A stretch of 64,000 nucleotides of DNA from Spirochaetia bacterium (GCA_963662795.1 OY759746.1:2912001-2976000), one strand, 5' to 3'; counted from the first letter of the stretch, positions 1-17,993 are shown. The notes: generated from the letters alone by a model not told the origin. A program made the numbers and translations.

Positions 1-2
1 TT

Positions 3-209
3 CCATGTCTTAAAAGGCATATCAGGTATCTGGCAGGGGCAATAGAGCTTTTACCGCCGGAGACAGTTGTGATGCGCCTTACCTGCGATACTCCCATGTC
101 AAGGCGGCTTGCTCCCAGACATGATCTGGCGAAGGGGGAAGTAATAAATGCCTTGCGTAAATTACTTGAGGAAAGAGAGACATATCAGGGAAAGTTTTAT
201 AAAGATTGA
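3..209 (+). CDS. 3' end of TIGR01212 (YhcC/YtqA-like) radical SAM protein, partial at window edge
   Basis: Manual translation of frame 3 gives ...ELLPPETVVMRLTCDTP...LAPRH...EVINALRKLLEERETYQGKFYKD*, matching the family C-terminal pattern LPPxxVIHRL...YQG. Confidence 0.7.
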   Translation, partial: PCLKRHIRYLAGAIELLPPETVVMRLTCDTPMSRRLAPRHDLAKGEVINALRKLLEERETYQGKFYKD

Positions 210-241
210 CAGGCAGACTTATTTATAATTATTATTAACAA

Positions 242-1816
242 ATGGATGAGAAATTTGTTGCTGACAATAATACAGGCCGTTCAGATATTGATGAAATAAA
301 TGAAAATCGCTCTATCTGGGAAAGAATAGTAAATTTTTTCAGTGATAACAGCCCTGATGCAAAAAAAAGAAAACTTCTTAAAGATATTCAGAAAATACTT
401 AAAAAACATAAATTCAAGTTTATCAATGTCAGAGTAGAAGAAGCACAGCCTGCGCTGGCCAAATTTTTTTATCAGATATACAGTGTCATTGCTGTCCCGT
501 CAAGCCTCCTTTCCGGTCAGGAATCATCCCCTGCATTGAAATACCTGTTTATTGATTATGTGCTATCGGAAAAACAAAAAACACTGATCAGCCGGCTTCA
601 TAAGGATAATATTGAAAAACGCCTCGCAAACGGAGACAGCAGTGAAGTTGAACAGATAAAAAAAGAACTTGCTGTTCTTCTTAAATCCATAAGCGACGAA
701 CAAAAAGGGGATATTGCCCGTTTTTACAGGCAGTATCTGGTTTTTCTCAAACTCCTTAAATTTGATTATTATTTCTTCCTTAGAAAGTTTGATTCAGGGT
801 TTGCTGAAATGGATTTCAAGTATAAACCCGCTTTTCAGCCGATAAATTGTGACTATATTGTAGACGATCTGATAGATTTATCATCCATCTTTCCGCTTAT
901 TCTGCGCTATGATTCCTGGAAAGAAGTATTTGAAGTACTAAAGGTTTTCAAGGGGCAGGATATCCTTTCCCGCGACGACTGGAACAAGCTCCTCAAGATT
1001 ATCGGGAGTGTCAATAATTCCGAGGTTCTTACTTATATTATAAAGCTGATTACCCGGGACCCGTTCTATACTCCATCAGCAGAAGAAAAAGTGGATGATA
1101 TTATCGAGGAATATTTTGGAAAGCTTAAAACCTCAGTAACCATGACTATCCAGAAAGTTGCTACGGAAAAGAAGAATTCACACAAAGAGTCGGTTTTAAA
1201 CCAGATTTTCGGGACAATCGCGATCAGCAGAATGAAAAACTATACTGAAGCCAATAACGGTGTGTTCAGGGCGAAAATGCTTGGCGGATATCTCTATATT
1301 GAAATTATGAATTACATGAAAGCATTCATGCTTGATTATGTAAAAAAGGATTTAATGAGAATTGTCAATTTTCTTGTTGTAAAAGCTGAATGGAAAACAA
1401 ATATTTTCAGCAAGGAAATGTCTGATGCACTTGAGGAATTGATTACTGTTTCAGACAGGATACTGGAGTTTGATCAGTCTCTGTCAGCTGATGAGGATGT
1501 CGGAGCAAAGATGAACACATTTCTGAAACGGATGACATCTGATCCAAGATATAAGGGGGAGGTTAAAAAACTTCTTCACGATATCAACAGCCAGGTCCTT
1601 GTAATGGCCCAGGATACATACCGGAACCTTACAAAAATTGCGCAAAAACTTGCGGAAATACTGCCCGAGTTTGTAGAACCTCCAAAAATGGGGATAATAA
1701 TAAACCCGGCTTTTGTTAAATCGTCTTATGGAAATGATATTGAAGCTGATATAAAAACAATCTACAAACAGATTTACTATTTTTTAAGTCTTATAAAACT
1801 GATGCTAACCAAATAG
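242..1816 (+). CDS. Spirochete-specific helical protein (DUF5312-like)
   Basis: 524-aa ORF with FFSDNSPDAKKRKLLKDIQK and FDYYFFLRKFD segments, typical of this family. Confidence 0.65.
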   Translation: MDEKFVADNNTGRSDIDEINENRSIWERIVNFFSDNSPDAKKRKLLKDIQKILKKHKFKFINVRVEEAQPALAKFFYQIYSVIAVPSSLLSGQESSPALKYLFIDYVLSEKQKTLISRLHKDNIEKRLANGDSSEVEQIKKELAVLLKSISDEQKGDIARFYRQYLVFLKLLKFDYYFFLRKFDSGFAEMDFKYKPAFQPINCDYIVDDLIDLSSIFPLILRYDSWKEVFEVLKVFKGQDILSRDDWNKLLKIIGSVNNSEVLTYIIKLITRDPFYTPSAEEKVDDIIEEYFGKLKTSVTMTIQKVATEKKNSHKESVLNQIFGTIAISRMKNYTEANNGVFRAKMLGGYLYIEIMNYMKAFMLDYVKKDLMRIVNFLVVKAEWKTNIFSKEMSDALEELITVSDRILEFDQSLSADEDVGAKMNTFLKRMTSDPRYKGEVKKLLHDINSQVLVMAQDTYRNLTKIAQKLAEILPEFVEPPKMGIIINPAFVKSSYGNDIEADIKTIYKQIYYFLSLIKLMLTK

Positions 1817-1818
1817 TA

Positions 1819-2385
1819 TTATACTACATGCCTGCCTATAAGGTTTAAAAACTCCTGTCTTGTAGCAAGACTTGTCTGAAAGCTTCCAAGGACTGATGAG
1901 GTTGTCATCAGGGAGTTCTGTTTTTCAACCCCCCGCATCATCATGCAGAGATGACGGCATTCCATTACAACTCCTACTCCGTCTGCATTTACACAGTTCC
2001 TTATTTCTTTTGCTATCTGCGCAGTAAGCCTTTCCTGTATCTGCAGCCGTCTCGCATAGGTTTCCACAATCCTTGCTATTTTACTGACCCCGATTACCTG
2101 TTTATCAGCAATATAGCCGATATGGCATTTGCCGTAAAAAGGGAGCATGTGATGCTCACAGAGGCTGTAAACCTCAATATCCCGCAGTATTATCATATTG
2201 TTTGCTTCTGAAGAAAATACTGCGCCGTTCACAACATCATCGATATTTTCATGGTAGCCCTTTGTAAGGAATGCGATTGCATCAGTAAAGCGCTCCGGTG
2301 TTTTTAAAAGACCTTCGCGGTCAGGATCCTCTCCTATTTCAATAAGCAGCTGATGTATCAGTTCTTTGACTCGTTCTTTGTCCAT
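1819..2385 (-). CDS. folE: GTP cyclohydrolase I
   Basis: GEDPDREGLLKTPER, SLCEHHMLPF, RRLQIQERLT and HLCMMMRG motifs. Confidence 0.97.
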   Translation of the reverse strand: MDKERVKELIHQLLIEIGEDPDREGLLKTPERFTDAIAFLTKGYHENIDDVVNGAVFSSEANNMIILRDIEVYSLCEHHMLPFYGKCHIGYIADKQVIGVSKIARIVETYARRLQIQERLTAQIAKEIRNCVNADGVGVVMECRHLCMMMRGVEKQNSLMTTSSVLGSFQTSLATRQEFLNLIGRHVV

Positions 2386-2487
2386 GGATGCAATAATAAC
2401 AGCAATAATTTATTATTAGAAGTACTTTTTTGATACTTGATTGACCCTGCTTGATTCAGGACGGTTAAAACCTTAAAACCCAAGGGC

Positions 2488-3414
2488 TTAATTGTTTTTT
2501 GATTCAAATGCTTTTATGAAAAGCAGAAGTATCCTGTTGACTGAAATGCAGGAGGACAGGTCCTTTTCCAGTATTTTATCTATATATCCGTTTATATCTT
2601 CTATTTCTGTTTTTCTTCCGGAAAGAATATCCTGCAGCATGGAAGATTTATTTGCAGCAGTATTTTCTGCGACACTCAGAACCGACCGGTAGACAGCTTC
2701 TTCTTCAAGCCTGATATTCCTTAAAGCTGCGGCTGTGCAGACCTCTTTTACTGTCATTCGGATAATATTCTTCAGGTGAGAATTTTCAGCTGTAAATCCG
2801 TTACTGCATCCTGTGATAGCGGTTAGAGGATTAATCGCGGCATTTACCGCAAGTTTTTTCCAGATAAGCTTATCCGGATTATCTGTATAAGCAGCTTTTA
2901 AACCTGCCGTGCTAAGGGCTTTAATAAGCGGCATCAGCTTTTCTTTCTGCCCGGTACTGCCCGTCATCCCGATTTTCGTCTTCCCTTTTCCTCCGTGGAC
3001 TATACGGGAAGGCTCAAGGAAAAACGCTCCTTCCGTAGTTGTCCCGGAAGCAGTCCTTTCCCTGCCGAAAAAGCGTGAAATAGCCTCTGCATTGCCGGAT
3101 CCGTTTTGAAAAGTAACAGCAATGGAATTTTTACCGGCAAAACCTGAAACAGTTTCCGCCGCTTCCAGTGTGGAGTAGGATTTTACACAGAAGAGGTAAA
3201 AATCAGCACCCCTTAAGTCAGAAGAAAGAACTCCAGCCGGGTGAGAATGCAGTATTACGGCCCCTGAAGGAGAAAGAACTGTTATCCCGTTATCCCTTAT
3301 TGCTTCTGCCCGCGGCCTGTCTTTATCTGTAATCAGGACATTATAACCTGCCTTTGCAAGGTATGCCGCAAAAAGCGACCCCGCAGCGCCGGCTCCTATA
3401 ATTGCTATAGTCAT
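2488..3414 (-). CDS. panE: 2-dehydropantoate 2-reductase (ketopantoate reductase)
   Basis: GAGAAG Rossmann motif, CVKSY, FQNG, WKKLAVNAAINPLTA and SSMLQD...TEIEDING. Confidence 0.95.
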   Translation of the reverse strand: MTIAIIGAGAAGSLFAAYLAKAGYNVLITDKDRPRAEAIRDNGITVLSPSGAVILHSHPAGVLSSDLRGADFYLFCVKSYSTLEAAETVSGFAGKNSIAVTFQNGSGNAEAISRFFGRERTASGTTTEGAFFLEPSRIVHGGKGKTKIGMTGSTGQKEKLMPLIKALSTAGLKAAYTDNPDKLIWKKLAVNAAINPLTAITGCSNGFTAENSHLKNIIRMTVKEVCTAAALRNIRLEEEAVYRSVLSVAENTAANKSSMLQDILSGRKTEIEDINGYIDKILEKDLSSCISVNRILLLFIKAFESKNN

Positions 3415-3495
3415 ATAACATACTATAGCAGATATGATTTTACTGGAAAACTATCTGTTGAATAAATGAATGATTTATTGGATAATCTGTTTTGT

Positions 3496-4449
3496 ATGAA
3501 ACGGGTAACTGCATTTTCTCCCGGGCATGTAACCGGGCTTTTTTATATGAGAGACCTTGAAGATGACCCTCTTTACTGCGGGTCTCTCGGCGCCGGATTT
3601 TCCATTGTCAAGGGAGCACAGACAGCCGTGAGCCTCTTCAGCCGGAAACAAAAAGTAAATGATATATCAATAAACAGCATAAAAAGTTCTGATACCCCGG
3701 TAAGCGTTAAAATACTGGAGCTCTTTTTTAATAAAACCGGTATTGCCGGCGAAGGACTCAAGGTAGAGCATAAAATAGAAACTCCCCAGGGAGCAGGATT
3801 CGGTTCAAGCGGAGCAGGCGCTCTCAGCCTTGTGTTTGCCCTGAACAGACTTTACGGTGACCCTTTAAGCGGCCTGCAGGCTTCGCAGATAGCCCATTCT
3901 GCTGAAGTGCTGTGTAAAACCGGCCTCGGCACTGTAATGGGTGAGACACTCGGCGGGGTAAAAATACTTGTCAAACCCGGAGCCCCCGGGATTGGCGCGA
4001 CAGTTTCAATTCCATATCCTGAAGGACTTTATGCGATGTTTGTCGTATACGGTCCTCTTTCAACCCGGGATGCGCTTTCCGACCCTGATATAAGAAGGAA
4101 AATCACCGGGGGAGGGAAGAAATATCACTCGCTGATTAAAAAAACTCCTGATTTTGCCAGTTTTTTAAAATACTCAAGGGAATTTGCCGAGAGCACGGGA
4201 ATAATTCCTGTCAGCGTCAGAAAGATAATGGATAAACTCGATAAAAACAAAATCAACTGCAGTATGCTGATGTTCGGAGAAGGCACTTTTTCCATTTTTT
4301 CAAAAAGCGATTTACCGGTTATAAAAAAAATTGCCGAGGGAATAATCGAAGAACTTAAGATTGAAAGCCCTGCGAATTTTATAAAAAAACCGTATCTTTT
4401 TTTCTCAAATATTGCAAAGGGAGGAGTAAGCATTGTCAGCGAGGATTAA
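3496..4449 (+). CDS. pok: Pantoate kinase (archaeal-type, GHMP kinase family)
   Basis: N-terminal AFSPGHVTGLF, GSLGAGFS, GHMP loop PQGAGFGSSGA, AHSAEV..KTGLGTV and PGAPGIG; directly upstream of a PPS gene. Start could also be 3466. Confidence 0.9.
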   Translation: MKRVTAFSPGHVTGLFYMRDLEDDPLYCGSLGAGFSIVKGAQTAVSLFSRKQKVNDISINSIKSSDTPVSVKILELFFNKTGIAGEGLKVEHKIETPQGAGFGSSGAGALSLVFALNRLYGDPLSGLQASQIAHSAEVLCKTGLGTVMGETLGGVKILVKPGAPGIGATVSIPYPEGLYAMFVVYGPLSTRDALSDPDIRRKITGGGKKYHSLIKKTPDFASFLKYSREFAESTGIIPVSVRKIMDKLDKNKINCSMLMFGEGTFSIFSKSDLPVIKKIAEGIIEELKIESPANFIKKPYLFFSNIAKGGVSIVSED

Positions 4450-5221
4450 TATTCCTGAAAACCATCCAAGGTATAAAGCAATGATGATAAGGGAAAGCCT
4501 TATAAGGGGCTGTGAGGAAAAGATTGTCGCGCCTGCAGGGCTTATTGCCCAGGGAAGGGGGGAGGCGTTTGACTACCTTTTGGGAGAACAGACTGCGGAT
4601 TTTGCTATCCAGGCTATAAACGCCGCGGCAGCCGCGTTTCTTCTGGCAGAGCATCCGGTAATTTCTGTTAACGGAAATACCGCTGTACTTGTCCCTGAAG
4701 AGTTTGTAAGGCTTTCCCGGGTGTCTGGCGCTCCGCTTGAGATAAATCTTTTTTACCGGCAGCCGGGGCGGGAAGAGGCAATCCTTAAAGTACTCCGCAG
4801 GGCAGGAGCGGAAAAGGTTCTGGGCGTAAGCGGAAAAAGTGAGATTATTAAAGAACTTACAAGCGACAGGAGGATAGTTGACCCTGAAGGGATATTCAAG
4901 GCGGATATGGTTTTTGTCCCTCTTGAAGACGGGGACAGGACAGAGGCTCTTGTCGCTCTCGGTAAAAGAGTTGTTACTGTTGACTTAAATCCCCTGTCAA
5001 GGACGCCTAACAGGGCACATGTTTCAATAATTGACAATATAACAAGAGCAGTTCCCCTTTTGTGCGAATATATTATAAAATACAAGGGTAAAAGCAGGGA
5101 TGAACTTGAAAACATTTACAGTTCCTTCAATAACATTGAGATGCTGAAAAAATCCCTTCTTTTTATTTCGGAAAGGCTGATTATGCTTTCCGGGGAGATG
5201 AAAACAGGAAATGGGAAATAA
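4433..5221 (+). CDS. pps: 4-phosphopantoate--beta-alanine ligase (archaeal-type phosphopantothenate synthetase)
   Basis: IPENHPRY, GLIAQGRGEAFDYLLGE, PVISVNGN, EINLFYR, VPLEDGDRTEAL, VDLNPLSRT and IIDNITRA hallmark motifs; TTG start after a GGAGGA RBS. Confidence 0.95.
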   Translation: MSARINIPENHPRYKAMMIRESLIRGCEEKIVAPAGLIAQGRGEAFDYLLGEQTADFAIQAINAAAAAFLLAEHPVISVNGNTAVLVPEEFVRLSRVSGAPLEINLFYRQPGREEAILKVLRRAGAEKVLGVSGKSEIIKELTSDRRIVDPEGIFKADMVFVPLEDGDRTEALVALGKRVVTVDLNPLSRTPNRAHVSIIDNITRAVPLLCEYIIKYKGKSRDELENIYSSFNNIEMLKKSLLFISERLIMLSGEMKTGNGK

Positions 5222-6485
5222 AAGACATCCTTCTTTTGATATAACAGGTTCGATTTCAGGCCGCCTTGCAGGTAAAAAGATTATACTCTGCGTTACAGGA
5301 AGTGTGGCGGCGGTAAGATCGCCTGACCTTGCAAGGCTTTTTATGAGGCACGGCGCAGACGTTTATCCCGTAATGAGCTCATCGGCATGCGGCATAATCC
5401 ACCCGGACCTGATGCACTGGGCTGCGGGAAGAAAACCGGTTACTGAGCTTACGGGAAGTATAGAGCATGTAGAGCTTGCCGGAAACACCGGTACAAGGGC
5501 AGACCTCCTCGTTGTCGCGCCGTGCACGGCAAACACAATCGGAAAGATGGCCGGCGGAATAGACGACACTCCGGTAACTACTTTTGCAACAACAGCCATA
5601 GGGGAAGGGATTCCCCTTATTGTGGTGCCGGCAATGCATGAGCCGATGTACCATCATCCCTTTGTTGAAGAGAACATTAAAAAGCTTGTTTCCGCGGGAA
5701 TCCGTGTTATGCAGCCCCGCCTTGAGGAGGGAAAGGCTAAAATTCCGGAGAACGAAGAGATACTTGGTGAAGTCCTGAAACTTCTTGCCCCGTCCGTGCA
5801 GATTCTCAGCGGGAAAAAAGTCCTTGTTACGGCAGGAAGGACTGTCGAATATATAGATCCTGTACGGGTAATCAGCAATAACTCAACCGGAAAGATGGGG
5901 GTTGCGCTTGCAGAGAAAGCTTGTGAAGCCGGAGCTGATGTTACGCTTATTGCAGGCAAAATTACTGTAAAGCCCGCATCCGGGATCAGGGTAATCCATG
6001 CTGAAACCGCACTTGAGATGGCAGGGGCTGTCGGGAAAGAACTTGACAGCGGAAGATATGATATCTTTGCCGCTGCCGCGGCTGTAGGAGACTGGCAGCC
6101 TGATGAAAAATCAGCGGTAAAGATATCCACTCATGACAATGATTCGCTTGTATTAAAGCTTAAACCTACCCCCAAAATTATTGACAGGATAAAGAAAAAA
6201 TATCCGTCAGTTTTTCTTCTTGCGTTCCGTGCGCTTTATGCCCTGAAGGAATCAGACCTGCTTGATAACGCAAGATGGAGAATGGAAAAAGCCGGTGCGG
6301 ACATGATTGCTGTAAATGATGTTTCCAAAAAAGGAGCGGGGTTTGAATCTGAAACAAATGAAATGTATATTATTACAAAAGAGGGAATACTCGAGAAGAT
6401 CCCCATGGCTTCAAAACATGAGGTAGCAGCGGATATAGTAAGGATAATAGCGCGGGAGATATCGGCTGGAAAACCTGTAGCGTAA
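5211..6485 (+). CDS. coaBC: Bifunctional phosphopantothenoylcysteine decarboxylase/synthetase (archaeal-like)
   Basis: VTGSVAA, APCTANTIGK, PAMH, TAGRTVEYIDPVRVISNNSTGKMG and AAAVGD; archaeal-style N-terminal HPSxDIxG extension. Confidence 0.95.
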   Translation: MGNKRHPSFDITGSISGRLAGKKIILCVTGSVAAVRSPDLARLFMRHGADVYPVMSSSACGIIHPDLMHWAAGRKPVTELTGSIEHVELAGNTGTRADLLVVAPCTANTIGKMAGGIDDTPVTTFATTAIGEGIPLIVVPAMHEPMYHHPFVEENIKKLVSAGIRVMQPRLEEGKAKIPENEEILGEVLKLLAPSVQILSGKKVLVTAGRTVEYIDPVRVISNNSTGKMGVALAEKACEAGADVTLIAGKITVKPASGIRVIHAETALEMAGAVGKELDSGRYDIFAAAAAVGDWQPDEKSAVKISTHDNDSLVLKLKPTPKIIDRIKKKYPSVFLLAFRALYALKESDLLDNARWRMEKAGADMIAVNDVSKKGAGFESETNEMYIITKEGILEKIPMASKHEVAADIVRIIAREISAGKPVA

Positions 6486-6528
6486 AAATACGGCTGCTAA
6501 AAAATTTGATCCAAGGAATATAAAAGAT

Positions 6529-7383
6529 ATGAAAAACAGGGATAAGAAAAAATATCTTACAGATGATTATCTGGAAATGAAGAAGAAAAAAGAAAAGATA
6601 ACAATGCTCACCGCCTACTCATATCCTCAGGCTCTTGTGGCTGAAGAAGCGGGAATTGACTGTATACTAGTCGGTGATTCTCTTGGAATGGTTGAACTCG
6701 GTTACAGCAGTACAGTTCCTGTGACAATGGAAGATATGCTTCTCCATTTAAAGGCTGTTGTCCGCGGAGCGCCCCATACACACATAATCGTTGACATGCC
6801 TTTCATGAGCTACAATATATCAATTGAACAGGCAATTGCAAACGCAGGGGTTCTTTATCAGGGCGGCGGGGCAGATTCCGTAAAACTGGAAGGGGGCCAA
6901 AACAGCGCAAAAGTTATTAACGCTGTCTGCAGAGCAGGAATACCGGTATGTGCCCATATCGGACTTACACCCCAGACTGCATCCCTGCTTGGAGGATACA
7001 AGGTTCAGGGTAAAACACTTGATGCTGCCAAAAAACTTGTAGATGATGCCCTTGCGGTTGAAGATGCGGGCGCTTTCATGATAGTACTTGAAGCAATACC
7101 TATGAATCTTGCAGCAGTAATTACTGAAAAACTCGCAATTCCGACTGTTGGAATAGGGGGCGGGGTAAATTGTGACGGACAGGTGCTGGTTTTCCACGAT
7201 TTGATGGGACTTTACAAACAATTTACACCTAAATTTGTGAAAGTATACGCACAGATTCATGATGTCATGAAAAATGCCATAAAGAATTACGCAGAGGATG
7301 TCAGGGCAGGCAGGTTTCCTGCTGAAGAACACTCATTTACCATGAAAGATGATATAATTGAGAAGCTGTTAAAGATTTTATAA
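6529..7383 (+). CDS. panB: 3-methyl-2-oxobutanoate hydroxymethyltransferase
   Basis: ITMLTAY, LVGDSLGM, VDMPF, VKLEGG, HIGLTPQ and DGQVLVFHD motifs. Confidence 0.97.
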   Translation: MKNRDKKKYLTDDYLEMKKKKEKITMLTAYSYPQALVAEEAGIDCILVGDSLGMVELGYSSTVPVTMEDMLLHLKAVVRGAPHTHIIVDMPFMSYNISIEQAIANAGVLYQGGGADSVKLEGGQNSAKVINAVCRAGIPVCAHIGLTPQTASLLGGYKVQGKTLDAAKKLVDDALAVEDAGAFMIVLEAIPMNLAAVITEKLAIPTVGIGGGVNCDGQVLVFHDLMGLYKQFTPKFVKVYAQIHDVMKNAIKNYAEDVRAGRFPAEEHSFTMKDDIIEKLLKIL

Positions 7384-7434
7384 TTTAGATTCGGCTGAAT
7401 ATGCAAAATCAGGATTAAACACCACGGAGAATAT

Positions 7435-8337
7435 ATGCCTGCAAAAATAATAAGCGGATATGAGGTGAGAGAGGAAATTCTCTCCCTGGTACGGAAGGAA
7501 ACAGAAGAAATCAGGGAAAAATACGGTAAGGTACCCGGACTTGCAACAATCCTTGTCGGAGATGATCCGGGATCTGTATCCTATGTCAGGCTTAAAATAC
7601 AGACAGCCGGCAGTCTCGGTTTCAGGGAAGTGCAGGTTAATCTATCTGAAAACACTACCGAGAAAGAACTTCTTGATATAATTGAAAAATACAACTGCGA
7701 TGATAACATCCATGGAATACTTGTGCAGCTTCCTCTTCCTCATCACATAAATGAAAAAAAAATTATCTATTCCATAAATCCTGACAAGGATGTTGACTGC
7801 TTTCACCCGATAAATGTCGGTAAAATGGTTTTAGGGTGCAGTGAATCAAGATTTAATCCGTGTACTCCGGCAGGAATAATTGAACTTATCAGGAAAACAG
7901 GAATTCCCCTATCCGGAGCTGAAGTAGCTGTAATCGGGAGATCCAATATTGTAGGGAAACCCCTCGCAAACATGCTTATCCAGAAGGCGCATAACTCTAC
8001 AGTTACAGTGCTTCATACCGGATCAAAAGATCTTGAATATCACTGCAGAAGAGCGGATATTGTTGTCGCTGCAGCCGGATGCCCCGGACTTGTTAAACCG
8101 CAGTGGATAAAACCGGGCGCCTGCGTGATTGATGTCGGTACAAACAGGATCGGCGATAAGATAAGCAAAAAAACAGGAAAAAAGATTGCGATTTTAAGAG
8201 GTGATGTCGATTTCGAAGAGGTTTCAAAGATTGCAGGCTATATAACACCTGTTCCAGGCGGTGTCGGCCCCATGACAATAACAATGCTGATGAAAAATAC
8301 ACTTGAATCACTCAAACATACACTCGGTCTTGTTTAG
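7435..8337 (+). CDS. folD: Methylenetetrahydrofolate dehydrogenase/cyclohydrolase
   Basis: GILVQLPLP, PDKDVDCFHP, PCTPAG, GRSNIVGKP and ITPVPGGVGPMT. Confidence 0.97.
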   Translation: MPAKIISGYEVREEILSLVRKETEEIREKYGKVPGLATILVGDDPGSVSYVRLKIQTAGSLGFREVQVNLSENTTEKELLDIIEKYNCDDNIHGILVQLPLPHHINEKKIIYSINPDKDVDCFHPINVGKMVLGCSESRFNPCTPAGIIELIRKTGIPLSGAEVAVIGRSNIVGKPLANMLIQKAHNSTVTVLHTGSKDLEYHCRRADIVVAAAGCPGLVKPQWIKPGACVIDVGTNRIGDKISKKTGKKIAILRGDVDFEEVSKIAGYITPVPGGVGPMTITMLMKNTLESLKHTLGLV

Positions 8338-8343
8338 GTGTTT

Positions 8344-8370
8344 TGATGCAGGAGATTCTCCCCTGCATCA
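8344..8370. terminator. Hairpin between convergent folD and outer-membrane protein gene (likely bidirectional terminator)
   Basis: TGATGCAGG ... CCTGCATCA inverted repeat. Confidence 0.65.
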
Positions 8371-8372
8371 GT

Positions 8373-8918
8373 TTAGAATACATATCTGATACCAATTGCC
8401 CCTGAGCCTGAAAATCCCGTATCCGGTGTTACCTCGAGACCTGCACCCACTTCAATATAAACGTTAAGCGGTTCGTCTGCGAATGTATGTTCAAGCCTTA
8501 AAACCCCCAGAACATCTGTTCTTAATTTATCACCTGTCCTTAAATAAACAGCCGGGCCGAAAGAAAGGGGAAATACATTATCCTTAATTACAATATCTGC
8601 AAGAGTGAAAAGGGCGTTTCCGCCCAGTGCCAGCTCATCAAAAGAATACAAACCAAGCACCGCGTTGAATTCGATCAGGTTTGTCATCTGGTATCCGAAT
8701 GTGATTCCGGTCGGATAGCCGAGTGACAGTCCTATTTTACCTTTTCCTTCAAGCTTTTCCTCAAGCTTATCAAGATTTATATCTTTATTGCTTTTTCCCG
8801 CTTCCAGCTTCCCAGGCTGGATATTAGCGTCCTGACTACGGTAGCTGCTTTCGGCATATACTGCTGTCAGCGACGCTGTTAAAAGAAATATTATCATAAG
8901 TAAAGCGGATTTTTTCAT
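8373..8918 (-). CDS. Small outer-membrane beta-barrel protein (DUF3996/BAPKO_0422-like)
   Basis: Signal peptide, GLSLGYPTGIT, alternating amphipathic strands and a C-terminal GIRYVF BAM signal. Confidence 0.7.
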   Translation of the reverse strand: MKKSALLMIIFLLTASLTAVYAESSYRSQDANIQPGKLEAGKSNKDINLDKLEEKLEGKGKIGLSLGYPTGITFGYQMTNLIEFNAVLGLYSFDELALGGNALFTLADIVIKDNVFPLSFGPAVYLRTGDKLRTDVLGVLRLEHTFADEPLNVYIEVGAGLEVTPDTGFSGSGAIGIRYVF

Positions 8919-8990
8919 AGTTAAACTCCAATTTATCTCCAGTCGTATTGCCTTAAAGATAACTGTTTTTTAATTAATTCTCAATTACTT

Positions 8991-9623
8991 TCAGTTTCTG
9001 TCTGCGGTCAAAATTTCAAACAGTAATTTAAGAGGAATCCGCCCGTCTGTGTCTTTACCGGGCTGATAATGATTTTTATCGCTGAAATCCTTGTTTATTC
9101 TGTAAAGCGAAGAGTTTACCATGTCAAGGTCTATGGCAAATTCAGTGTCAAATTCAAAATCATCATCAACTGCGGTAAAATTAAGCCCGCAGACAGCTAG
9201 TGTATAATTTTCAGGGTATTCAGAATAATACAGAAGCGGAAGCCCCTGGGTCCTGCATATAACAGGCCTGTGCCGGTATATCGAACAGGCAGAGTTGTTG
9301 AGGAAGATGCAGCTTTCAGGTTCCGTATCGATGTTTCCATCCGGTTCAGATGAAGCATATTCTGTTTTTACGCTTCTGCTGGCAGTGCATCGGCCGGAAA
9401 AGCCATCGAAAAGACCGGGAGGCAGTTTTTTATCCTCAAGTTCTTTTTTTATGGCATAAAATTCAACAGGCATCAGGGAAATTGGTATGCAGCAGGAGGA
9501 ACAGCCTGACCGGCATATAATATTGTCAGCGTAATATGCAGTAATTACTGCGGCTTTACTGTCAATTTTATCCCGCAGTGCAAAATAGTCATGAAAATAA
9601 TTGTTCTTCAGACAATACTCCAC
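8991..9623 (-). CDS. YkgJ family cysteine cluster protein
   Basis: CRSGCSSCC and CIFL..C.IY..RP.ICR motifs. Confidence 0.85.
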   Translation of the reverse strand: MEYCLKNNYFHDYFALRDKIDSKAAVITAYYADNIICRSGCSSCCIPISLMPVEFYAIKKELEDKKLPPGLFDGFSGRCTASRSVKTEYASSEPDGNIDTEPESCIFLNNSACSIYRHRPVICRTQGLPLLYYSEYPENYTLAVCGLNFTAVDDDFEFDTEFAIDLDMVNSSLYRINKDFSDKNHYQPGKDTDGRIPLKLLFEILTADRN

Positions 9624-10642
9624 TGCGCATCCTCACCGGCCATGAATGGAATAACGCTTCCCCTGTTTCCGGGAATTTTAAAGCTCTTTTTTTCAAGCGT
9701 TATTGTTCCTTTATTAAGGCCCAGGCTGTAGAATTCCGCCCCGAAAAGTGATGTGAATTTTTCCATAAGGTCAAGCGATCCGTTATTATCGAAAAAAGAA
9801 GCAAGCAGAGGCAGCGCACAGGGAGCCGTATATATACCTGCGTTTCCGTTTATTTTAAGTTTTGATATTTCAGGGTGGGGTGCGCTGTCAGAACCGAAGA
9901 AGAATTTACTGTTTCCCGACAGTGCTGATTTTCTTACCGCATCCCTGTCCTGAGGTGTTTTTACAACAGGCTTGCAGAAATTATGGGGATTTATACCTCC
10001 TCCGATAAGGTCATCCAGCGTGAGATATAAATGGTGGACTGTTATTGTTGCGGCCAGATTTGGTGGTCCGGAAAGTACAAAATCCACTCCTTCCTTACTT
10101 GAAACATGCTCAAGAACAACCTTGAGTGAAGGATAGTTTTGAAGTATTGCGCCGAGTTCAGTCAGATAGTCCTTTTCCCTTTCAAGAACAAAGGAATCAG
10201 GCACTTCTCCATGAATGGAAAGAACAATTCCCTTTTTTTCCATAAATGAGAGGGCTTCCCGTATCTGTTTCCACGATTTAACGCCGTCCTCTGCGTTTGT
10301 TGTGCTTCCCTCAGGATAGAGCTTCCCGGCCACGGCTCCGGCCTCTAAAAGGGCCTCTAAAACATCTTCTTTCATATCCGGGTAAAGCTTGAAAGTCATG
10401 AGAGGGGTAAAATCCGGTTCCCCGGGCAACTCTTTAAGCGCTTCTTCAATTTCACCCAAATAGGCTGTAAGTCTCTGAGCGCTGTTAACAGGCGGGAGAA
10501 TGTTCGGCATTACAAGCGCTCTGGCAAACCCGCCGGCAGTATCCGCGATACAGTTTTTTAGAAGTTCCCCCTGCCTCAGGTGAAGATGCATGTCATCCGG
10601 CTTGCGTATTGAAATCCTCTCTTTTGTCCGGGCTGTCATCAT
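9608..10642 (-). CDS. pyrC: Dihydroorotase (type II)
   Basis: PDDMHLHLR, MPN, KLYPEGSTTN, LEHV, FCKP and FFGSDSAPH. Confidence 0.95.
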   Translation of the reverse strand: MMTARTKERISIRKPDDMHLHLRQGELLKNCIADTAGGFARALVMPNILPPVNSAQRLTAYLGEIEEALKELPGEPDFTPLMTFKLYPDMKEDVLEALLEAGAVAGKLYPEGSTTNAEDGVKSWKQIREALSFMEKKGIVLSIHGEVPDSFVLEREKDYLTELGAILQNYPSLKVVLEHVSSKEGVDFVLSGPPNLAATITVHHLYLTLDDLIGGGINPHNFCKPVVKTPQDRDAVRKSALSGNSKFFFGSDSAPHPEISKLKINGNAGIYTAPCALPLLASFFDNNGSLDLMEKFTSLFGAEFYSLGLNKGTITLEKKSFKIPGNRGSVIPFMAGEDAQWSIV

Positions 10643-10699
10643 GGTTGCAGTATAGACTTAAAAAAAATAAAAATAAAGCAATTCTTTTTGCAGAAGCGG

Positions 10700-10730
10700 T
10701 TGACACTTGAAAGATCCTGAGGTATATATT
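10700..10730 (+). promoter_or_regulatory. Sigma70-type promoter of the trp operon
   Basis: TTGACA at 10700-10705 followed by a TATATA/TATATT -10 region at 10723-10730. Confidence 0.6.
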
Positions 10731-10763
10731 TCTATACATAGAAACGTTACTACGTGTAGAAAC
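10728..10763. promoter_or_regulatory. Two tandem 18-bp palindromic operators (candidate TrpR sites)
   Basis: ATTTCTA-TACA-TAGAAAC (10728-10745) and GTTACTA-CGTG-TAGAAAC (10746-10763) over the -10/+1 region; the motif recurs upstream of trpB2. Confidence 0.7.
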
Positions 10764-10791
10764 CATTAATCAACAGCAACAGGAGGAGCCA

Positions 10792-12210
10792 ATGCCGGCC
10801 CGTGAAGATACTGTTCTTAAAATTATTTCCGGAGAAAATTATACTCCGTGCGGTCTTGCGGAAAAACTGGGCGCCCGCGTAGTGCTTGAATCCGCATCCT
10901 ACATGAAAGGAAAATCGCGGCACTCGCTTCTTCTTATAGATGAAGCATTCAGGCTTGTACAGCATGACGATGAAATATCAATAATAAAAACAAATTCGTC
11001 ACCGGAAAGAAAAGCTGTTTTAATGCCGGAATTCCGCGACATTCTTGATGCTGCAGGGTATTTTGCAAAACAGCATGCAGCGCTTGAATTCCCTTTTCCG
11101 GCCGGCGGGATAGGCTATCTTTCATACGAATTTGTAAAAAACTGCGACAAGGTTCAGTTCAGAAACCGTTCCGGGGAAAAAACAATACTTCCTGAAATAC
11201 CTGAAGCATCGCTGCTTTTCGGGCATGTTTTTTTGATTTTTGACCACTATACAGATCTTATCTACCTGCTTGGCATTAACTATGAAGAGGCCGTAATTGA
11301 CCTTGTGTCCAGGATCGCAGGTGTCGAAAAAAGGATAAAAGACCTTGATTTTAACTATCTTGTTGACCGGGATGAAAAATATGAGTGTTCTGTTGTTTAT
11401 AATCCGCCTGCAGAAGAGTTTATGGACAATGTCGTTAAGATAAAGGATGAAATAAAAAAGGGTAATCTCCTTCAGTGTGTTGTATCAAGAAAACTTGGAA
11501 TCAAAACTGATATGCCCCCGTTCAAGGCATATAAGAAACTGAAATCAGCATCCCCCTCTCCCTATATGTTTTTTCTCGACTTTACAGATTTTCAGCTGTT
11601 CGGCTCGTCTCCTGAAGTGCATCTGCTTGTAAATGAAGATAAGGCAACAATGAGGCCTATTGCGGGGACAAGGAGGAGAGGAAGTGATCAGGAGGAAGAT
11701 ACTGCGCTTGAGAAAGAACTTCTTGAAGATGAAAAAGAGGGATGTGAGCATCTTATGCTTGTAGACCTTGCCAGAAATGATCTTGGAAGGGTCTGCCGTG
11801 CGGGGTCCGTAAAGGTCGCCGAATCAAGAACAATAGAAAGATATTCCCATGTGATGCATATTGTTTCGCAGGTCGGGGGTGAGCTTGGGGACGGGGTAAC
11901 AGGTGCTCAGGCCCTGAGGGCGACTTTTCCCGCGGGAACTGTATCAGGCGCGCCCAAGCTTAAGGCAATAGAGATAATTGACCGCCTTGAAAAGGAAAAG
12001 AGAGGCTTTTATGCCGGAATTGTCGGTTATTTTGAACCCGGCGGCAATCTCAACTCATGTATAAATATAAGGAGCGGCATGAAAGCCGGGAATATTCTTA
12101 CCCTGCAGTCCGGCGCCGGAATAGTCGCGGATTCCGTACCAGAGAGGGAATACGAAGAGACCTGTGAAAAAATGCGGGCAATTGCAAAAGTACTTGGACT
12201 GGAGGTCTAG
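10792..12210 (+). CDS. trpE: Anthranilate synthase component I
   Basis: VLES, SPSPYMF, SSPE, RPIAGTRRRG, EHLMLVDLARND and FPAGTVSGAPK; AGGAGG RBS. Confidence 0.95.
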   Translation: MPAREDTVLKIISGENYTPCGLAEKLGARVVLESASYMKGKSRHSLLLIDEAFRLVQHDDEISIIKTNSSPERKAVLMPEFRDILDAAGYFAKQHAALEFPFPAGGIGYLSYEFVKNCDKVQFRNRSGEKTILPEIPEASLLFGHVFLIFDHYTDLIYLLGINYEEAVIDLVSRIAGVEKRIKDLDFNYLVDRDEKYECSVVYNPPAEEFMDNVVKIKDEIKKGNLLQCVVSRKLGIKTDMPPFKAYKKLKSASPSPYMFFLDFTDFQLFGSSPEVHLLVNEDKATMRPIAGTRRRGSDQEEDTALEKELLEDEKEGCEHLMLVDLARNDLGRVCRAGSVKVAESRTIERYSHVMHIVSQVGGELGDGVTGAQALRATFPAGTVSGAPKLKAIEIIDRLEKEKRGFYAGIVGYFEPGGNLNSCINIRSGMKAGNILTLQSGAGIVADSVPEREYEETCEKMRAIAKVLGLEV

Positions 12211-12213
12211 AAA

Positions 12214-13830
12214 ATGTACCTGATTATTGATAATTACGATTCTTTTACATATAACCTTTATCAGTATCTGTGTCAGATAACGGCCAAAAAAGTCGAGGTC
12301 AGGAGAAATGATGAGATTACTGTTGAAGGAATAAAGGAACTTTCTCCCGAAGGTATTATCATCTCTCCCGGCCCCGGGCGGCCCGAGGAAAGCGGCATCA
12401 TCATAGACTGCATAAAAGAGTTTGCAGGAAAAATACCTATACTAGGGGTATGCCTCGGGCATCAGGCTATAGGGGCCGCCTTCGGGGGCGATATAATTCT
12501 GTCGTCTAAAATCTATCACGGCAAAACAGATAAAATAACCAATGACGGCAAAGGGGTTTTTAGAAACCTCTCCCCGGTTCTCGATATGGTCAGGTATCAT
12601 TCGCTTGTTATTGACTCATGTAAACTGCCTGCTGAACTTGAAATTACAGCAACTTCGAGCGACGGTGAGATAATGGGTGTAAGGCATAAATTGTATGATG
12701 TTGAGGGGGTCCAGTTCCATCCTGAATCCTATGGTTCTGAATCGGGGATCCAGCTCCTTAAAAATTTTATAAATTACAGAAGGGAATCCTGCACACCCAA
12801 AAAAATTCTTACTTCAATCATGAAACATAAAAATCTTATTTTTGATGAAGCCTCGGATTTTATGGAAGAGCTGACCGAAGGAAATCTGAGCGAGGCAGTT
12901 ATTGCAGGTTTTCTTACTGCCCTTAACACGAAAGGAATATCGGCTGAAGAGATTGCAGGATGCGCTTCCGTCCTTAAAAGAAAAAAGAAATCCATCAGAA
13001 TTGAAGGAAAGGTAATTGATACATGCGGAACCGGAGGAGACGAACTCGGGACTTTCAACATATCTTCCCTCGCCGCGATTGCGGCCGCATCCTGCGGAGC
13101 CAAAGTAGCAAAACACGGAAACAGGGCAGTAAGCTCGCTTACAGGCAGCGCTGATTTTTACCGTGAGCTCGGGGTTCCTGTTGACATTACTCCGGGTGAA
13201 GCGGAAAAAATGATTGATGAGGAGGGGTTTGCTTTTCTTTTTGCCCCTTTTTATCACAGCGCAATGAGGTTCGCGGGACCGGTGCGGCAGAAGCTTGGTT
13301 TTAAGACAATAATGAATCTTCTCGGACCGCTTGTGAATCCAGCGGATACAAAATACCAGCTCATAGGGGTTTATGATCCCTCTCTTTGCAGGACGATGGC
13401 GGAAGCCGCAAAAATACTCGGAGCAGAGCGGGTAATGATTGTTCACGGGCTTGACGGACAGGATGAAATATCTGTTACAGGAGGCACCAGGATTGTAACA
13501 ATAGATGAAAAAGGCAATGAGGATATCTTTACTTTTGATCCGCTTCAGAACGGGCTGAAAATTCATGATATCTCAGGGCTTAAAGGGGGAAATGCTGCGG
13601 TTAACGCATCTATCGCGCTTGAAGTAGTGAACAACAGGGGATACGGGGCTGTAAAGGAATCTGTTTCACTTAACGGGGGGGCGGCCCTTTACGTCTGCGG
13701 TATTGCAGGAAGCATTATGGAAGGTTACGGTATTGTAAAGGAAAGTATTGAAAGCGGACGGGTCAGGGAAAAACTTGAAAGTCTTATAAGCATGAACAGG
13801 ATGCTTCCGGAAAAAGGTAAAAATAAGTGA
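12214..13830 (+). CDS. trpGD: Fused anthranilate synthase component II / anthranilate phosphoribosyltransferase
   Basis: IDNYDSFT, SPGPG, GVCLGHQ and QFHPES, followed by DTCGTGGD, KHGNR and GPLVNP. Confidence 0.95.
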   Translation: MYLIIDNYDSFTYNLYQYLCQITAKKVEVRRNDEITVEGIKELSPEGIIISPGPGRPEESGIIIDCIKEFAGKIPILGVCLGHQAIGAAFGGDIILSSKIYHGKTDKITNDGKGVFRNLSPVLDMVRYHSLVIDSCKLPAELEITATSSDGEIMGVRHKLYDVEGVQFHPESYGSESGIQLLKNFINYRRESCTPKKILTSIMKHKNLIFDEASDFMEELTEGNLSEAVIAGFLTALNTKGISAEEIAGCASVLKRKKKSIRIEGKVIDTCGTGGDELGTFNISSLAAIAAASCGAKVAKHGNRAVSSLTGSADFYRELGVPVDITPGEAEKMIDEEGFAFLFAPFYHSAMRFAGPVRQKLGFKTIMNLLGPLVNPADTKYQLIGVYDPSLCRTMAEAAKILGAERVMIVHGLDGQDEISVTGGTRIVTIDEKGNEDIFTFDPLQNGLKIHDISGLKGGNAAVNASIALEVVNNRGYGAVKESVSLNGGAALYVCGIAGSIMEGYGIVKESIESGRVREKLESLISMNRMLPEKGKNK

Positions 13831-15410
13831 ACATTCTGGAAGAAATTGTCGTGCGCCGGAAAATCAGGGTTTCGGTGAAAGGGGCGTCCCAGGGAATAAG
13901 ACTGCCTGAAAAAAGGGAGGTCCCGCTTGTTCCCTTTGCAGCCGGAAACACATTTATCTCAGACCGGAAGGGGGGAAATCCCGGTGGGATATCTGACAAT
14001 GCTTCCGGCAAGAGGTGCTTTGTAATTGCGGAGGTGAAGGGGAAATCTCCTTCCGCCGGTATTATAAGCAGCGCTTTTAACCCTGTTTCAATAGCGGCTC
14101 ATTACGCGAAGGCCGGGATAAGTGAAATATCTGTCCTTACAGAGGAAGAATACTTCGGCGGGTCTTTGCAGTATCTGGCAGATATAAAAAAAGCATTTCC
14201 GAAAATTGCTGTGCTGAGAAAGGATTTTCTCCTTACAAATGAAGATATTGATATCTCCTGGAGGGCAGGGGCGGATGCTGTTCTCCTTATTTCCTCCATA
14301 CTTGATAAAGAGACGCTTGGATGTCTTTTGAGAAGAGCTTCAGAGCTGGGGCTCACTGTGCTTGTAGAGGTGCATTCATTATCTGATATAGAAAAAATAA
14401 AGGAGTTAAAACCTCCTGTTGTGGGAATTAACTCACGTAACCTTGAAAACTTCAGGGTTGACAAGGCACTTCCCATGATGCTGGCCGGCTGTATTGACTG
14501 GGACGCGTCCCTGGTTTTTGAATCAGGCATAAAAAATGCGGAGGATGCGGATTATGCGTATCAGGGCGGATTCAGCGGCGTACTCTGCGGAGAGGCCCTC
14601 GTGAAAGATAAAACTCTTGCTCATCAGATGCAGGAGCTTGCCCGCCGTCGTACGGCATATAATGAATCAGACGGCGTCAACGTAAAAAGGGGAAGTGAGT
14701 TTTTCTGGAGAAGACTTTATAAAAACTGCATAGTGTCTGCCGGCGGGAACAGCGGCAGGATAAACAGACCTTTAATAAAGATCTGCGGGATTACCAATAC
14801 AGGTGACGCAAATGCTTCAGCTGATATGGGGGCAGATATGATTGGATTTGTATTTGCCGATTCACCCCGCCGGGCAGGAACCGGTCTGCCGGAAAAATTA
14901 TCATCGCTTGATATATTAAAGACAGCAGTTGTAAGAAATCCCGATACTGTTCTGATCGAATATCTGAAAAGCCTTTATGCCTACGGATTTATAGACGCAG
15001 TACAGTACCACGGCTCAGAATCTCCTGCTTTCTGCCGTGATGCCGGAATCCCTTATTACAAGTCCATGAGTTTTATGAACGTAAATAATAACACAAAATA
15101 CCATAAAGACGGCAGCGGGGAACTCCCTGATTATTCTCTTGTTTACGGCTGCCCGAGATTTCTTACAGATTCAGCTATCGGTGGAAGAGAAGGCGGCACA
15201 GGGGTAGCTGTTGAAAGCCATATAGTAGACGCAGTAAGAAAACGGGAACCCCTATGGCTTGCAGGGGGGCTGTCTGATGAAAATATTAAATCTGTAATTG
15301 AATGTTACAGCCCTGAGCTTGTTGACGCCTCGAGCAGACTTGAAGAATATCACGGAAAAAAAGATCTTAAAAAGCTTGAAAGTTTTATCAGGCAAATCAA
15401 AAGCTTTTAA
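13827..15410 (+). CDS. trpCF: Fused indole-3-glycerol phosphate synthase / phosphoribosylanthranilate isomerase
   Basis: IAEVKGKSPSAG, SVLTE, LRKDF, GINSRNL and ESGI, followed by KICGIT, GGTG, LAGGL and DASSRLE. Confidence 0.93.
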   Translation: MNILEEIVVRRKIRVSVKGASQGIRLPEKREVPLVPFAAGNTFISDRKGGNPGGISDNASGKRCFVIAEVKGKSPSAGIISSAFNPVSIAAHYAKAGISEISVLTEEEYFGGSLQYLADIKKAFPKIAVLRKDFLLTNEDIDISWRAGADAVLLISSILDKETLGCLLRRASELGLTVLVEVHSLSDIEKIKELKPPVVGINSRNLENFRVDKALPMMLAGCIDWDASLVFESGIKNAEDADYAYQGGFSGVLCGEALVKDKTLAHQMQELARRRTAYNESDGVNVKRGSEFFWRRLYKNCIVSAGGNSGRINRPLIKICGITNTGDANASADMGADMIGFVFADSPRRAGTGLPEKLSSLDILKTAVVRNPDTVLIEYLKSLYAYGFIDAVQYHGSESPAFCRDAGIPYYKSMSFMNVNNNTKYHKDGSGELPDYSLVYGCPRFLTDSAIGGREGGTGVAVESHIVDAVRKREPLWLAGGLSDENIKSVIECYSPELVDASSRLEEYHGKKDLKKLESFIRQIKSF

Positions 15411-15440
15411 TTATTCATTAATTTGAGATACGGGGGGAAG

Positions 15441-16673: not shown

Positions 16674-17416
16674 AGGAAAAAAATAACAAAATTATGACCC
16701 ACCTTGTGGCAGGATATCCTGATATTGATACTTCTTTCGAAATTGCCAAAATACTTGTACGAAGCGGTGTTTCCGCGCTTGAAATTCAGTTCCCGTTTTC
16801 AGATCCGACGGCTGACGGCCCTGCAATTGAAAAAGCCTGCTCAATTGCTCTTGAAAAGGGATTCAAAGTCGATGACGGATTTTCTCTTGTCAGTAAAATA
16901 ACTTCCTTTTCAGATATTCCTGTATTTATCATGACTTACGGAAGCATTGTATTTGCGCGCGGTATTGAGAAATTTGTAAAGGATTCTGCCTCTTCCGGAG
17001 CAGAGGGAGTAATAGTGCCGGATATGCTTTTTGACTATGATGAAGGTCTTGGAAGAATATGCAGAAGCCATAATATTGAATGTGTGCCTGTAATAGTCCC
17101 TTCCATGAAGAATGAGAGGATAAAAAAAGTTGCTGAACTCGGCAGTGGATATATCTATGCAGCACTTAGAAGCGGCACAACAGGGGTAAAGACAGTTATT
17201 GATCATTCATGTATCTCATTTCTTGAAAACCTTAAAAATAGCGGATCAAAAGTAATGGCAGGATTCGGGCTTAGAAGCAAAGACCAGATCAGTCAGCTTG
17301 AAGGTCTTGCGGATTACTATATCGTCGGCTCCGCTATTGTCGGCATGATAGATACCATTGCAGATGAAAAGGGCAGTTACGATAAAATTGGAGATTATAT
17401 AAAAACACTTCTGTAG
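16670..17416 (+). CDS. trpA: Tryptophan synthase alpha chain
   Basis: EIQFPFSDPTADGPAI, MTY, PD, GTTG, GFG and IVGSA. Confidence 0.95.
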   Translation: MKEKNNKIMTHLVAGYPDIDTSFEIAKILVRSGVSALEIQFPFSDPTADGPAIEKACSIALEKGFKVDDGFSLVSKITSFSDIPVFIMTYGSIVFARGIEKFVKDSASSGAEGVIVPDMLFDYDEGLGRICRSHNIECVPVIVPSMKNERIKKVAELGSGYIYAALRSGTTGVKTVIDHSCISFLENLKNSGSKVMAGFGLRSKDQISQLEGLADYYIVGSAIVGMIDTIADEKGSYDKIGDYIKTLL

Positions 17417-17527
17417 CTGCTTATAATCCGGCAGAAATAAACATCCGGTCTGCCGTATGCTGACTTTAAAAAAAAATAAATATTCTGCTTGACTTATTAT
17501 AAGTAAATAACTATTATAATTATAATA

Positions 17528-17926: not shown

Positions 17927-17943
17927 TTTTTTTATCTAAAAAC

Positions 17944-17964
17944 TAATAATCGTTACGATTATTA
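17944..17964. promoter_or_regulatory. Perfect 10-1-10 palindrome, candidate Fur/PerR box
   Basis: TAATAATCGT-T-ACGATTATTA upstream of the peroxiredoxin; a 16/21 copy lies at 17523-17543 over the perR start codon. Confidence 0.7.
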
Positions 17965-17993
17965 ATATAGTAAATTAAAATAAGGAGTAAAAA

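Follow-up and report, generated by a model that had tools for sequence, protein, structure and literature searches.

An archaeal-type operon for coenzyme A precursors in a spirochete chromosome, probably inherited from an ancestor that received it from archaea

The cluster and the identity of its genes

We analyzed a 64,000-nucleotide (nt) stretch of the chromosome of a Spirochaetia bacterium (GCA_963662795.1, OY759746.1:2912001-2976000), hereafter the window, in which five genes of coenzyme A (CoA) biosynthesis lie together at positions 2488-7383 (Table 1). All five open reading frames (ORFs), panE, pok, pps, coaBC and panB, are intact; consistent with the layout given in a preliminary description of this DNA, pok, pps and coaBC form an overlapping unit, with overlaps of 17 nt (pok/pps) and 11 nt (pps/coaBC), which is followed by panB and faced by the divergent panE. 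The usual bacterial pair of enzymes for making 4'-phosphopantothenate consists of PanC and pantothenate kinase (PanK), whereas pantoate kinase (PoK) together with phosphopantothenate synthetase (PPS) is typical of archaea. The cluster very probably represents a working archaeal-type operon for CoA precursors that came from archaea through an ancestor within the host's class, has descended vertically since, and is independent of the PoK and PPS genes of Candidatus (Ca.) Poribacteria.

The PPS sequence scores above the curated cut-offs of PF02006 (226.9 bits; cut-off 26.4) and NF010324 (337.7 bits; cut-off 227) and aligns over its full length (residues 5-255; E 2.7e-72) with the Thermococcus PPS of known structure (PDB 3wdk), with which the blocks GRGEAFDY, PLEDGDRTEAL and DLNPLSR are identical. 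Its TTG start is credible, because the ribosome-binding motif GGGAGGAG precedes it and homologues align from residue 5. For the kinase, the best-matching families are both of the pantoate kinase models, NF041122 (146.1 bits; E 1e-42) and NF040725 (139.7 bits; E 9e-41), with the remaining GHMP kinase models reaching at most 27 bits; among solved structures, the pantoate kinase 6jbc (E 9.9e-39) is followed by a homoserine kinase (1.1e-5). The GHMP motif of the protein is PQGAGFGSSGAG, and of the 92 PPS loci that were examined, 73 also contain PoK. The match to the pantoate kinase families is far beyond chance and, as judged from its sequence, the window kinase is a PoK. The gene identities of the preliminary description are thus borne out by family profiles and solved structures. 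An alternative pok start, the ATG at 3496, is possible, because the homologues are 309-314 amino acids long and align from residue 11-14.

In the pathway expected from these families, PanB and PanE would convert 2-oxoisovalerate into pantoate, the GHMP kinase would phosphorylate D-pantoate to 4-phosphopantoate, PPS would ligate 4-phosphopantoate with beta-alanine to yield 4'-phosphopantothenate, and CoaBC would add cysteine and then decarboxylate the product to 4'-phosphopantetheine, leaving the completion of CoA to CoaD and CoaE, which are encoded elsewhere in the genome. The cluster spans the route from ketoisovalerate to 4'-phosphopantetheine, the coverage originally proposed for it. The succession of PoK and PPS would stand in for PanC and PanK, and free pantothenate would not be an obligatory intermediate, because the archaeal order of steps replaces PanC and PanK, which were not found in the genome (see below).

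Alternatively, the archaeal-type proteins could work in the bacterial order, with PPS acting on unphosphorylated pantoate and the kinase then acting on pantothenate. The Pfam name of PF02006, 'phosphopantothenate/pantothenate synthetase', is compatible with this order, and relatives that have no PPS (discussed below) suggest that the kinase is able to act without it, but the window PPS aligns along its whole length with a solved 4-phosphopantoate--beta-alanine ligase, and the 80 columns that are invariant across 10 PPS sequences (that of the window and nine spirochete, Asgard and unnamed homologues) contain nothing that would indicate a changed substrate. The Thermococcus PPS is not known to accept pantoate. 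We consider the bacterial order very improbable, and the phosphorylation of pantoate before the ligation of beta-alanine remains the preferred reading of the operon.

Table 1. Features of the CoA cluster, its flanking genes and the reduced cluster of the PPS-less relatives (window positions unless a locus is named)
Feature	Position	Strand	Remarks
folE, GTP cyclohydrolase I, upstream neighbor	1819-2385	-	TIGR00063 235.9 bits
panE, ketopantoate (2-dehydropantoate) reductase	2488-3414	-	divergent from pok; TIGR00745 235.8 bits (cut-off 141.35), PF02558, PF08546
panE-pok spacer	3415-3465		51 nt, AT-rich; promoters presumably inside
pok, GHMP-family kinase, pantoate kinase clade	3466-4449	+	NF041122, NF040725, PDB 6jbc
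pps, 4-phosphopantoate--beta-alanine ligase (phosphopantothenate synthetase)	4433-5221	+	TTG start; PF02006, NF010324, PDB 3wdk
coaBC, bifunctional phosphopantothenoylcysteine synthetase/decarboxylase	5211-6485	+	TIGR00521 374.1 bits (cut-off 219.7)
panB, ketopantoate hydroxymethyltransferase	6529-7383	+	TIGR00222 347.7 bits (cut-off 207.55); PF02548 372.7 bits
folD, conserved downstream neighbor	7435-8337	+	PF02882, PF00763; best model NF010765 468.3 bits (below its cut-off of 501)
Reduced pok-coaBC-folD cluster	6047-8249 of L099 (G014)		also in L100, L101 and L102

Promoter-like matches in the region of the panE-pok spacer, at 3449-3422 (minus strand) and 3458-3486 (plus strand), belong to a class of sites found at chance level, with 16 in the window against 12.2 +/- 4.1 in shuffled sequences. 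Terminator-like sites likewise show no excess (8 in the window against 7.7 +/- 3.1), and an Rfam scan of the whole window returned no family at the gathering score.

Canonical genes in the host and distribution among spirochetes

The host genome, a single closed contig of 3,931,449 bp (98.08% complete; contamination estimate 5.72%), was searched with profiles for panC, coaA and coaX, a check that the preliminary description had proposed. Neither panC nor coaX had a match in the host genome, and coaA reached only 22.7 bits against a cut-off of 235; as positive controls, the searches for panC, coaX and coaA gave matches in 9, 7 and 10 of 14 named genomes, respectively. Both coaD (181.5 bits) and coaE (92.2 bits) are present in the host genome with scores over their cut-offs. 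Because the canonical genes were not found, PoK and PPS are, on the evidence of these profile searches, the sole recognizable route to 4'-phosphopantothenate in this closed genome.

To place the host among its relatives, we used a set of 61 related genomes and an even sample of 401 genomes from the phylum, each including the host. PPS is encoded in 17 of the 61 related genomes, spread over several of the families in the class, one of the matches being partial and located at the end of a contig; a PoK-like gene is encoded in 24, including all 17 PPS carriers. By comparison, panC occurs in 6 of the 61 genomes and in none of the PPS carriers, and coaX in 28, including four of the carriers. Within the window's family, 10 of 19 genomes have PPS and 17 have PoK, the two without PoK being the least complete (81% and 74%). 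In the phylum sample, PPS (7/401) and PoK (9/401) are confined to the window's class, and the three largest families contribute none (0/76, 0/51 and 0/37). Thus, few genomes of the phylum have the trait, although it is stable in a few families, and the survey finds PPS and PoK in the host, as described previously, without their being peculiar to it.

The related genomes display other arrangements as well. The four carriers mentioned above (G005, G008, G011 and G049) combine PoK and PPS with a type III PanK (CoaX) and have no PanC. A canonical cluster of panC, a CoaC-domain gene and coaX, the mirror of the archaeal-type operon, is found in at least three of the spirochetes with panC, namely G025 (contig 46, 4581-7332), G026 and G037; in G038, adjacency is limited to panC and the CoaC-domain gene. 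A CoaBC-type match at E <=1e-30 is absent in 25 of the 61 genomes, so that reliance on the salvage of later CoA precursors seems to be widespread in the class.

Ancestry and contiguity of the locus

A collection scan for PPS returned at least 592 confirmed stretches; among the best 80 labeled PPS loci of these, 68 are archaeal-titled and 12 are bacterial (8 from Spirochaetota, 3 from Poribacteria and 1 from Cloacimonadota). In the PPS tree (93 rows), a single group comprises 20 spirochete rows plus one from Bathyarchaeota, with a support of 91 in the Shimodaira-Hasegawa-like approximate likelihood ratio test (SH-aLRT), and the Poribacteria group with one Nanoarchaeia row and Methanosarcinales-type rows (95, starred). 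The PoK tree (74 rows) unites 20 spirochete rows with one Heimdallarchaeota row (95, starred), the 21st spirochete row, L007, standing just outside on a long branch; this spirochete group adjoins Thermoplasmata, Bathyarchaeota and Nitrososphaerota rows, and the Poribacteria pair with a Nanoarchaeia row (99, starred), apart from the spirochetes. A tree in which spirochete and Poribacteria PoKs were forced into one clade was rejected by the approximately unbiased (AU) test (log-likelihood difference 131; p-AU 2.2e-7). The two sets also differ in a PoK motif, which reads CKTGLGT..E in all 28 spirochete rows and most of those from Bathyarchaeia and Nitrososphaerota, and TGLGD..Q in Poribacteria, euryarchaeal and most Asgard rows. 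For PoK, the sequences point to a donor of the Bathyarchaeia/Nitrososphaerota type.

In the CoaBC tree, which was built without rows shorter than 330 amino acids, identical duplicates, the own-genome copy and one truncated duplicate, the cluster-linked copy lies in a 27-row all-spirochete clade (99, starred) amid archaeal CoaBCs. The window CoaBC is 50-54% identical to Bathyarchaeia CoaBC, compared with 32% and 27% for the CoaBC proteins of two other spirochetes. In the PPS, PoK and CoaBC trees alike, the window's family is one starred clade, a result that fits vertical descent. The spread of the genes across relatives, the single spirochete group in the trees and the ordinary base composition of the cluster point to an old acquisition of pok-pps by an ancestor within the window's class, followed by inheritance. 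The phylogenies, which the preliminary description had recommended, thus set the spirochete PPS and PoK apart from those of Poribacteria and place CoaBC amid archaeal homologues, but the proposal that the module was gained and the cluster assembled by this particular spirochete is not supported in that form, given that 17 of the 61 relatives carry both PPS and PoK, that the trees contain family clades and that the base composition is ordinary.

Two further records touch on the same genes. Locus L023 (66-4846), labeled Ca. Celaenobacter antarcticus (Cloacimonadota), encodes PPS-PanE-PanB...CoaBC, with PPS at the contig start, so that PoK may be cut off. The PPS of this locus clusters neither with that of spirochetes nor with that of Poribacteria, which suggests a third bacterial lineage with the PoK/PPS route. 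A protein of 724 amino acids (P0247), which contains PF02006 and both CoaBC domains and is 71% identical to the window CoaBC, may represent a fusion of PPS with CoaBC or an artefact of gene calling where the two genes overlap.

Given that the genes are archaeal in type and that the contamination estimate is 5.72%, a recent transfer into the host, or an assembly or binning artefact joining archaeal DNA to a spirochete chromosome, has to be considered. The host contig is closed, however, and the layout panE / pok-pps-coaBC-panB-folD recurs in three named spirochete metagenome-assembled genomes (L019-L021), with folE immediately next to panE in L019 and L021 and at a distance of about 600 nt from it in L020; the core layout is also present in same-family loci, which are only 3.5 kb long, with panE in the same position where the locus reaches. 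Two studies yielded runs with contigs that span the borders: in run X4, a contig of 79,696 nt covers window positions 1-10000 (18 differences), and in run X2, which belongs to a different study, a contig covers 1-9911 (0 differences), although only one of the two counts as independent, because the other may be the window's own source. The guanine-plus-cytosine (GC) content of the cluster, 0.449, is ordinary for the window, which has a mean of 0.430 +/- 0.022 and in which 12 of 60 segments reach the same level, and no mobile-element genes were seen among the neighbors scanned (242-2385 and 7435-20684). A recent transfer would moreover require near-identical archaeal donors, but the archaeal PPS sequences among the matches listed are at most 58% identical to that of the window. 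We regard both versions of this explanation as extremely improbable; in particular, the closed contig, the recurring flanks and the spanning contigs refute chimerism, which the preliminary description had named as a possible flaw.

The preliminary attribution of the DNA to a spirochete is likewise confirmed, in that the PPS and PoK of a same-genus genome (G002) are identical to 'Spirochaetia bacterium' sequences; those of a same-family genome match 'Spirochaetaceae bacterium' sequences. Pieces of folE, pok, coaBC and panB that are 90-95% identical to the window, from a relative, were found in a metatranscriptome and give a weak hint of transcription, because RNA libraries can contain DNA. Short 'joints' in run X2, with sides of 20-24 letters, were taken as chance matches from other organisms.

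Among the neighbors scanned, the gene at 242-1816 encodes a 524-amino acid protein that matches DUF5312 weakly (27 bits; cut-off 25) and belongs to no NCBIfam family. The others are folE, folD, an amidohydrolase gene, two ORFs with a poor assignment or none, and a trp operon in which trpG-trpD (538 amino acids) and trpC-trpF (527 amino acids) are fused, followed by peroxiredoxin and formate-tetrahydrofolate (THF) ligase (fhs) genes; the trp operon and the genes after it occupy 10792-17416 and 18918-20684. The region of the CoA cluster is thus rich in folate and one-carbon genes (folE, folD and the formate-THF ligase gene). PanB takes its one-carbon unit from 5,10-methylene-THF, which FolD interconverts, and a functional link between folD and panB is plausible.

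Several points weigh against the interpretation of the cluster as a working operon of old archaeal origin. The trees were quick ones with SH-aLRT support only, and the grouping submitted to the AU test was chosen after the free tree had been seen. In the PPS tree, the Spirochaetaceae row L091 falls with Bathyarchaeia, and the PPS of the Bathyarchaeota-labeled locus L025 nests beside Sediminispirochaeta within the spirochete group, whereas the PoK of that locus remains among Bathyarchaeota; in the PoK tree, the long-branched, Heimdallarchaeota-labeled L063 nests within the spirochete group. Back-transfer, mis-binning or long-branch artefacts are possible causes of the placement of L025 and L063. 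The PPS tree does not single out a donor, which the data as a whole characterize no more closely than as not of the Poribacteria type, and the CoaBC tree was built without a broad bacterial outgroup, so that co-transfer of coaBC with pok-pps is suggestive only. As regards function, PPS reaches 292.9 bits with the archaeal equivalog model NF041123, which is tuned to archaea, 7 short of the cut-off of 300, and the kinase lies far under both NCBIfam pantoate kinase equivalog cut-offs (146 versus 500 and 140 versus 380 bits); because four archaeal control genomes miss the NF040725 cut-off too, we take these cut-offs to be lineage-narrow and no bar to membership. No type II PanK (PF03630) was matched in the host genome, but the control was silent in 14 of 14 genomes as well, making this result uninformative, and the absence of a known PanK extends to types I and III, the Picrophilus-type archaeal PanK not having been searched. 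For beta-alanine, neither panD nor a group II pyridoxal phosphate-dependent decarboxylase was found in the host genome. Finally, in seven genomes of one genus among the relatives, g2 (size 1.5-1.8 Mb, completeness 92-99%), PoK is present whereas PPS, panC and coaX are missing.

Relatives without PPS and the substrate of the kinase

Since PPS is missing from seven relatives that have the kinase, pantoate may not be the sole substrate of this enzyme. In the four g2 loci that were read (L099-L102), a CorC/CBS gene is followed by PoK, by CoaBC 10 nt further on, and by FolD, with PPS and PanB cleanly gone; the congener G009 retains PanB-CoaBC-PPS-PoK. Consistently, panB is absent in 4 of 4 PPS-less g2 genomes tested and present in G009, coaA is absent in 5 of 5 g2 genomes tested, and coaD is present in all eight genomes tested. 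The kinase has been maintained under strong purifying selection, the ratio of nonsynonymous to synonymous substitution rates (dN/dS) of PoK being 0.028-0.061 in the 15 g2 pairs without G003; in the six pairs with G003, dS exceeds 1.6 and is near saturation. Each of the seven PPS-less PoKs retains all 38 columns that reach at least 85% conservation among the 73 PPS-linked PoKs, which argues for the same active site in both genomic contexts, and the only five fixed differences between the PPS-less PoKs and the PPS-linked PoKs of the family all fall at poorly conserved columns.

A pantoate kinase with neither a source of pantoate nor PPS makes little sense, and the simplest reading is that the g2 kinase phosphorylates pantothenate. 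We tentatively propose that the spirochete PoK clade includes a GHMP-fold pantothenate kinase, such that the g2 enzyme would feed CoaBC from imported pantothenate and the window enzyme may be dual-substrate. For the window, this amounts to an alternative in which the spirochete PoK acts on both pantoate and pantothenate, at the same pantoyl hydroxyl, so that the operon would serve synthesis as well as salvage and only salvage would be left in the reduced relatives. The retention of PoK in g2 without PPS, panC, coaX, coaA or panB but with coaD, under purifying selection and with unchanged conserved columns, speaks for such an enzyme. However, PoK without PPS represents a single evolutionary event, seen in no genus but g2, whether among the 61 relatives or in the phylum sample of 401 genomes; a type II or Picrophilus-type PanK, or an unrecognized PPS analogue combined with pantoate uptake, might operate in g2; and the CoaX of the four PPS-positive genomes would be redundant if PoK already salvaged pantothenate. 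On balance, a kinase with two substrates is conceivable but somewhat doubtful, and for the window we retain the archaeal order of PoK followed by PPS. If true, the pantothenate hypothesis would add a further, non-homologous kind of PanK, for which the PPS-less relatives supply a concrete candidate for the missing pantothenate kinase; it is more novel than the operon finding itself.

Comparison with known PoK/PPS systems

A full-text literature search, with subscription journals and supplements outside its scope, found no paper naming PoK or PPS in spirochetes, and the main text of two papers on spirochete genomics makes no mention of pantothenate or pantoate. Databases do carry such names: NCBI lists 'pantoate kinase [Sediminispirochaeta bajacaliforniensis]', UniRef lists '4-phosphopantoate--beta-alanine ligase' for Spirochaeta thermophila, and JGI metagenome proteins bear both PoK and PPS names. 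Thus, with regard to the caveat of the preliminary description that the pair might already be well documented across spirochetes, individual proteins have been named, but no publication was found. The Poribacteria precedent cited there is real and is the sole printed bacterial case that we found (PMC7883664). The spirochete route is therefore a well-supported new bacterial case of a known pathway type, in all probability gained long ago and independently of Poribacteria, and would amount to a second, independent archaea-to-bacteria transfer of the PoK/PPS step, with one Cloacimonadota record hinting at a third. Since the carriers include organisms with culture-collection strain names, Spirochaeta thermophila DSM 6578 and Sediminispirochaeta bajacaliforniensis, the route should be testable in bacteria. 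Predictions of CoA auxotrophy from panC and coaA/coaX alone will be wrong for these lineages.

Two papers, each cited here for the passages available to us, frame the comparison. In those of PMC6650551, PoK and PPS are called 'unique to the archaea'; PMC7883664 (Thomes and Lescure 2020) then made them a curiosity of uncultured sponge symbionts, reporting PoK/PPS in sponge-associated Ca. Poribacteria only in Entoporibacteria, and they now appear on the closed chromosome of a spirochete as well as across several families of these bacteria. Both spirochete proteins belong, over their full length, to the same two families as PoK and PPS of Thermococcus kodakarensis (6jbc/6jbd and 3wdk/3wdl/3wdm; PMC6650551), with the same expected order of pantoate phosphorylation and beta-alanine ligation. 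The spirochete differs from that archaeon in the PoK motif (T..E versus D..Q) and in having bacterial-type CoaD and CoaE, compared with the distinct archaeal dephospho-CoA kinase described in PMC6650551, and a search of the host for a homologue of the archaeal-type aspartate decarboxylase found none.

Like the spirochete, Poribacteria have PoK and PPS instead of PanC and PanK, combined, according to the passages of PMC7883664, with bacterial CoaBC, PPAT and DPCK. Their PoK and PPS nevertheless appear to be of separate origin, with Nanoarchaeia and Methanosarcinales-type neighbors in both trees. A classical PanE adjoins the spirochete operon, whereas for Poribacteria no KPR is reported and IlvC is proposed in its place (PMC7883664), and the three Poribacteria loci have no CoaBC, PanB or PanE within 7 kb of PPS. 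PMC7883664 states, in the same passages, that coexistence of both routes had not been described; in contrast, 4 of the 17 PPS-positive spirochetes also have a type III PanK, although none has PanC.

Bathyarchaeota are listed in PMC6650551 among the archaeal groups without PoK/PPS. Both proteins are, by contrast, encoded in nine Bathyarchaeota-labeled loci of our set (L025, L041, L043, L048, L055, L059, L069, L088 and L090). Bathyarchaeia-labeled rows are not the specific sister of the spirochete clade in the PPS or CoaBC tree, and their loci have another gene order, with CoaBC about 1.2 kb past PanB and a co-directional PanE. Nevertheless, Bathyarchaeia-labeled PoKs share the CKTGLGT..E motif with the spirochete PoK, and five Bathyarchaeia-labeled loci (L041, L043, L055, L059 and L069) hold the same five genes in one neighborhood as the spirochete cluster. 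Because such loci already carry PoK-PPS-PanE-PanB...CoaBC, the ancestor of the spirochete carriers may have gained the cluster en bloc.

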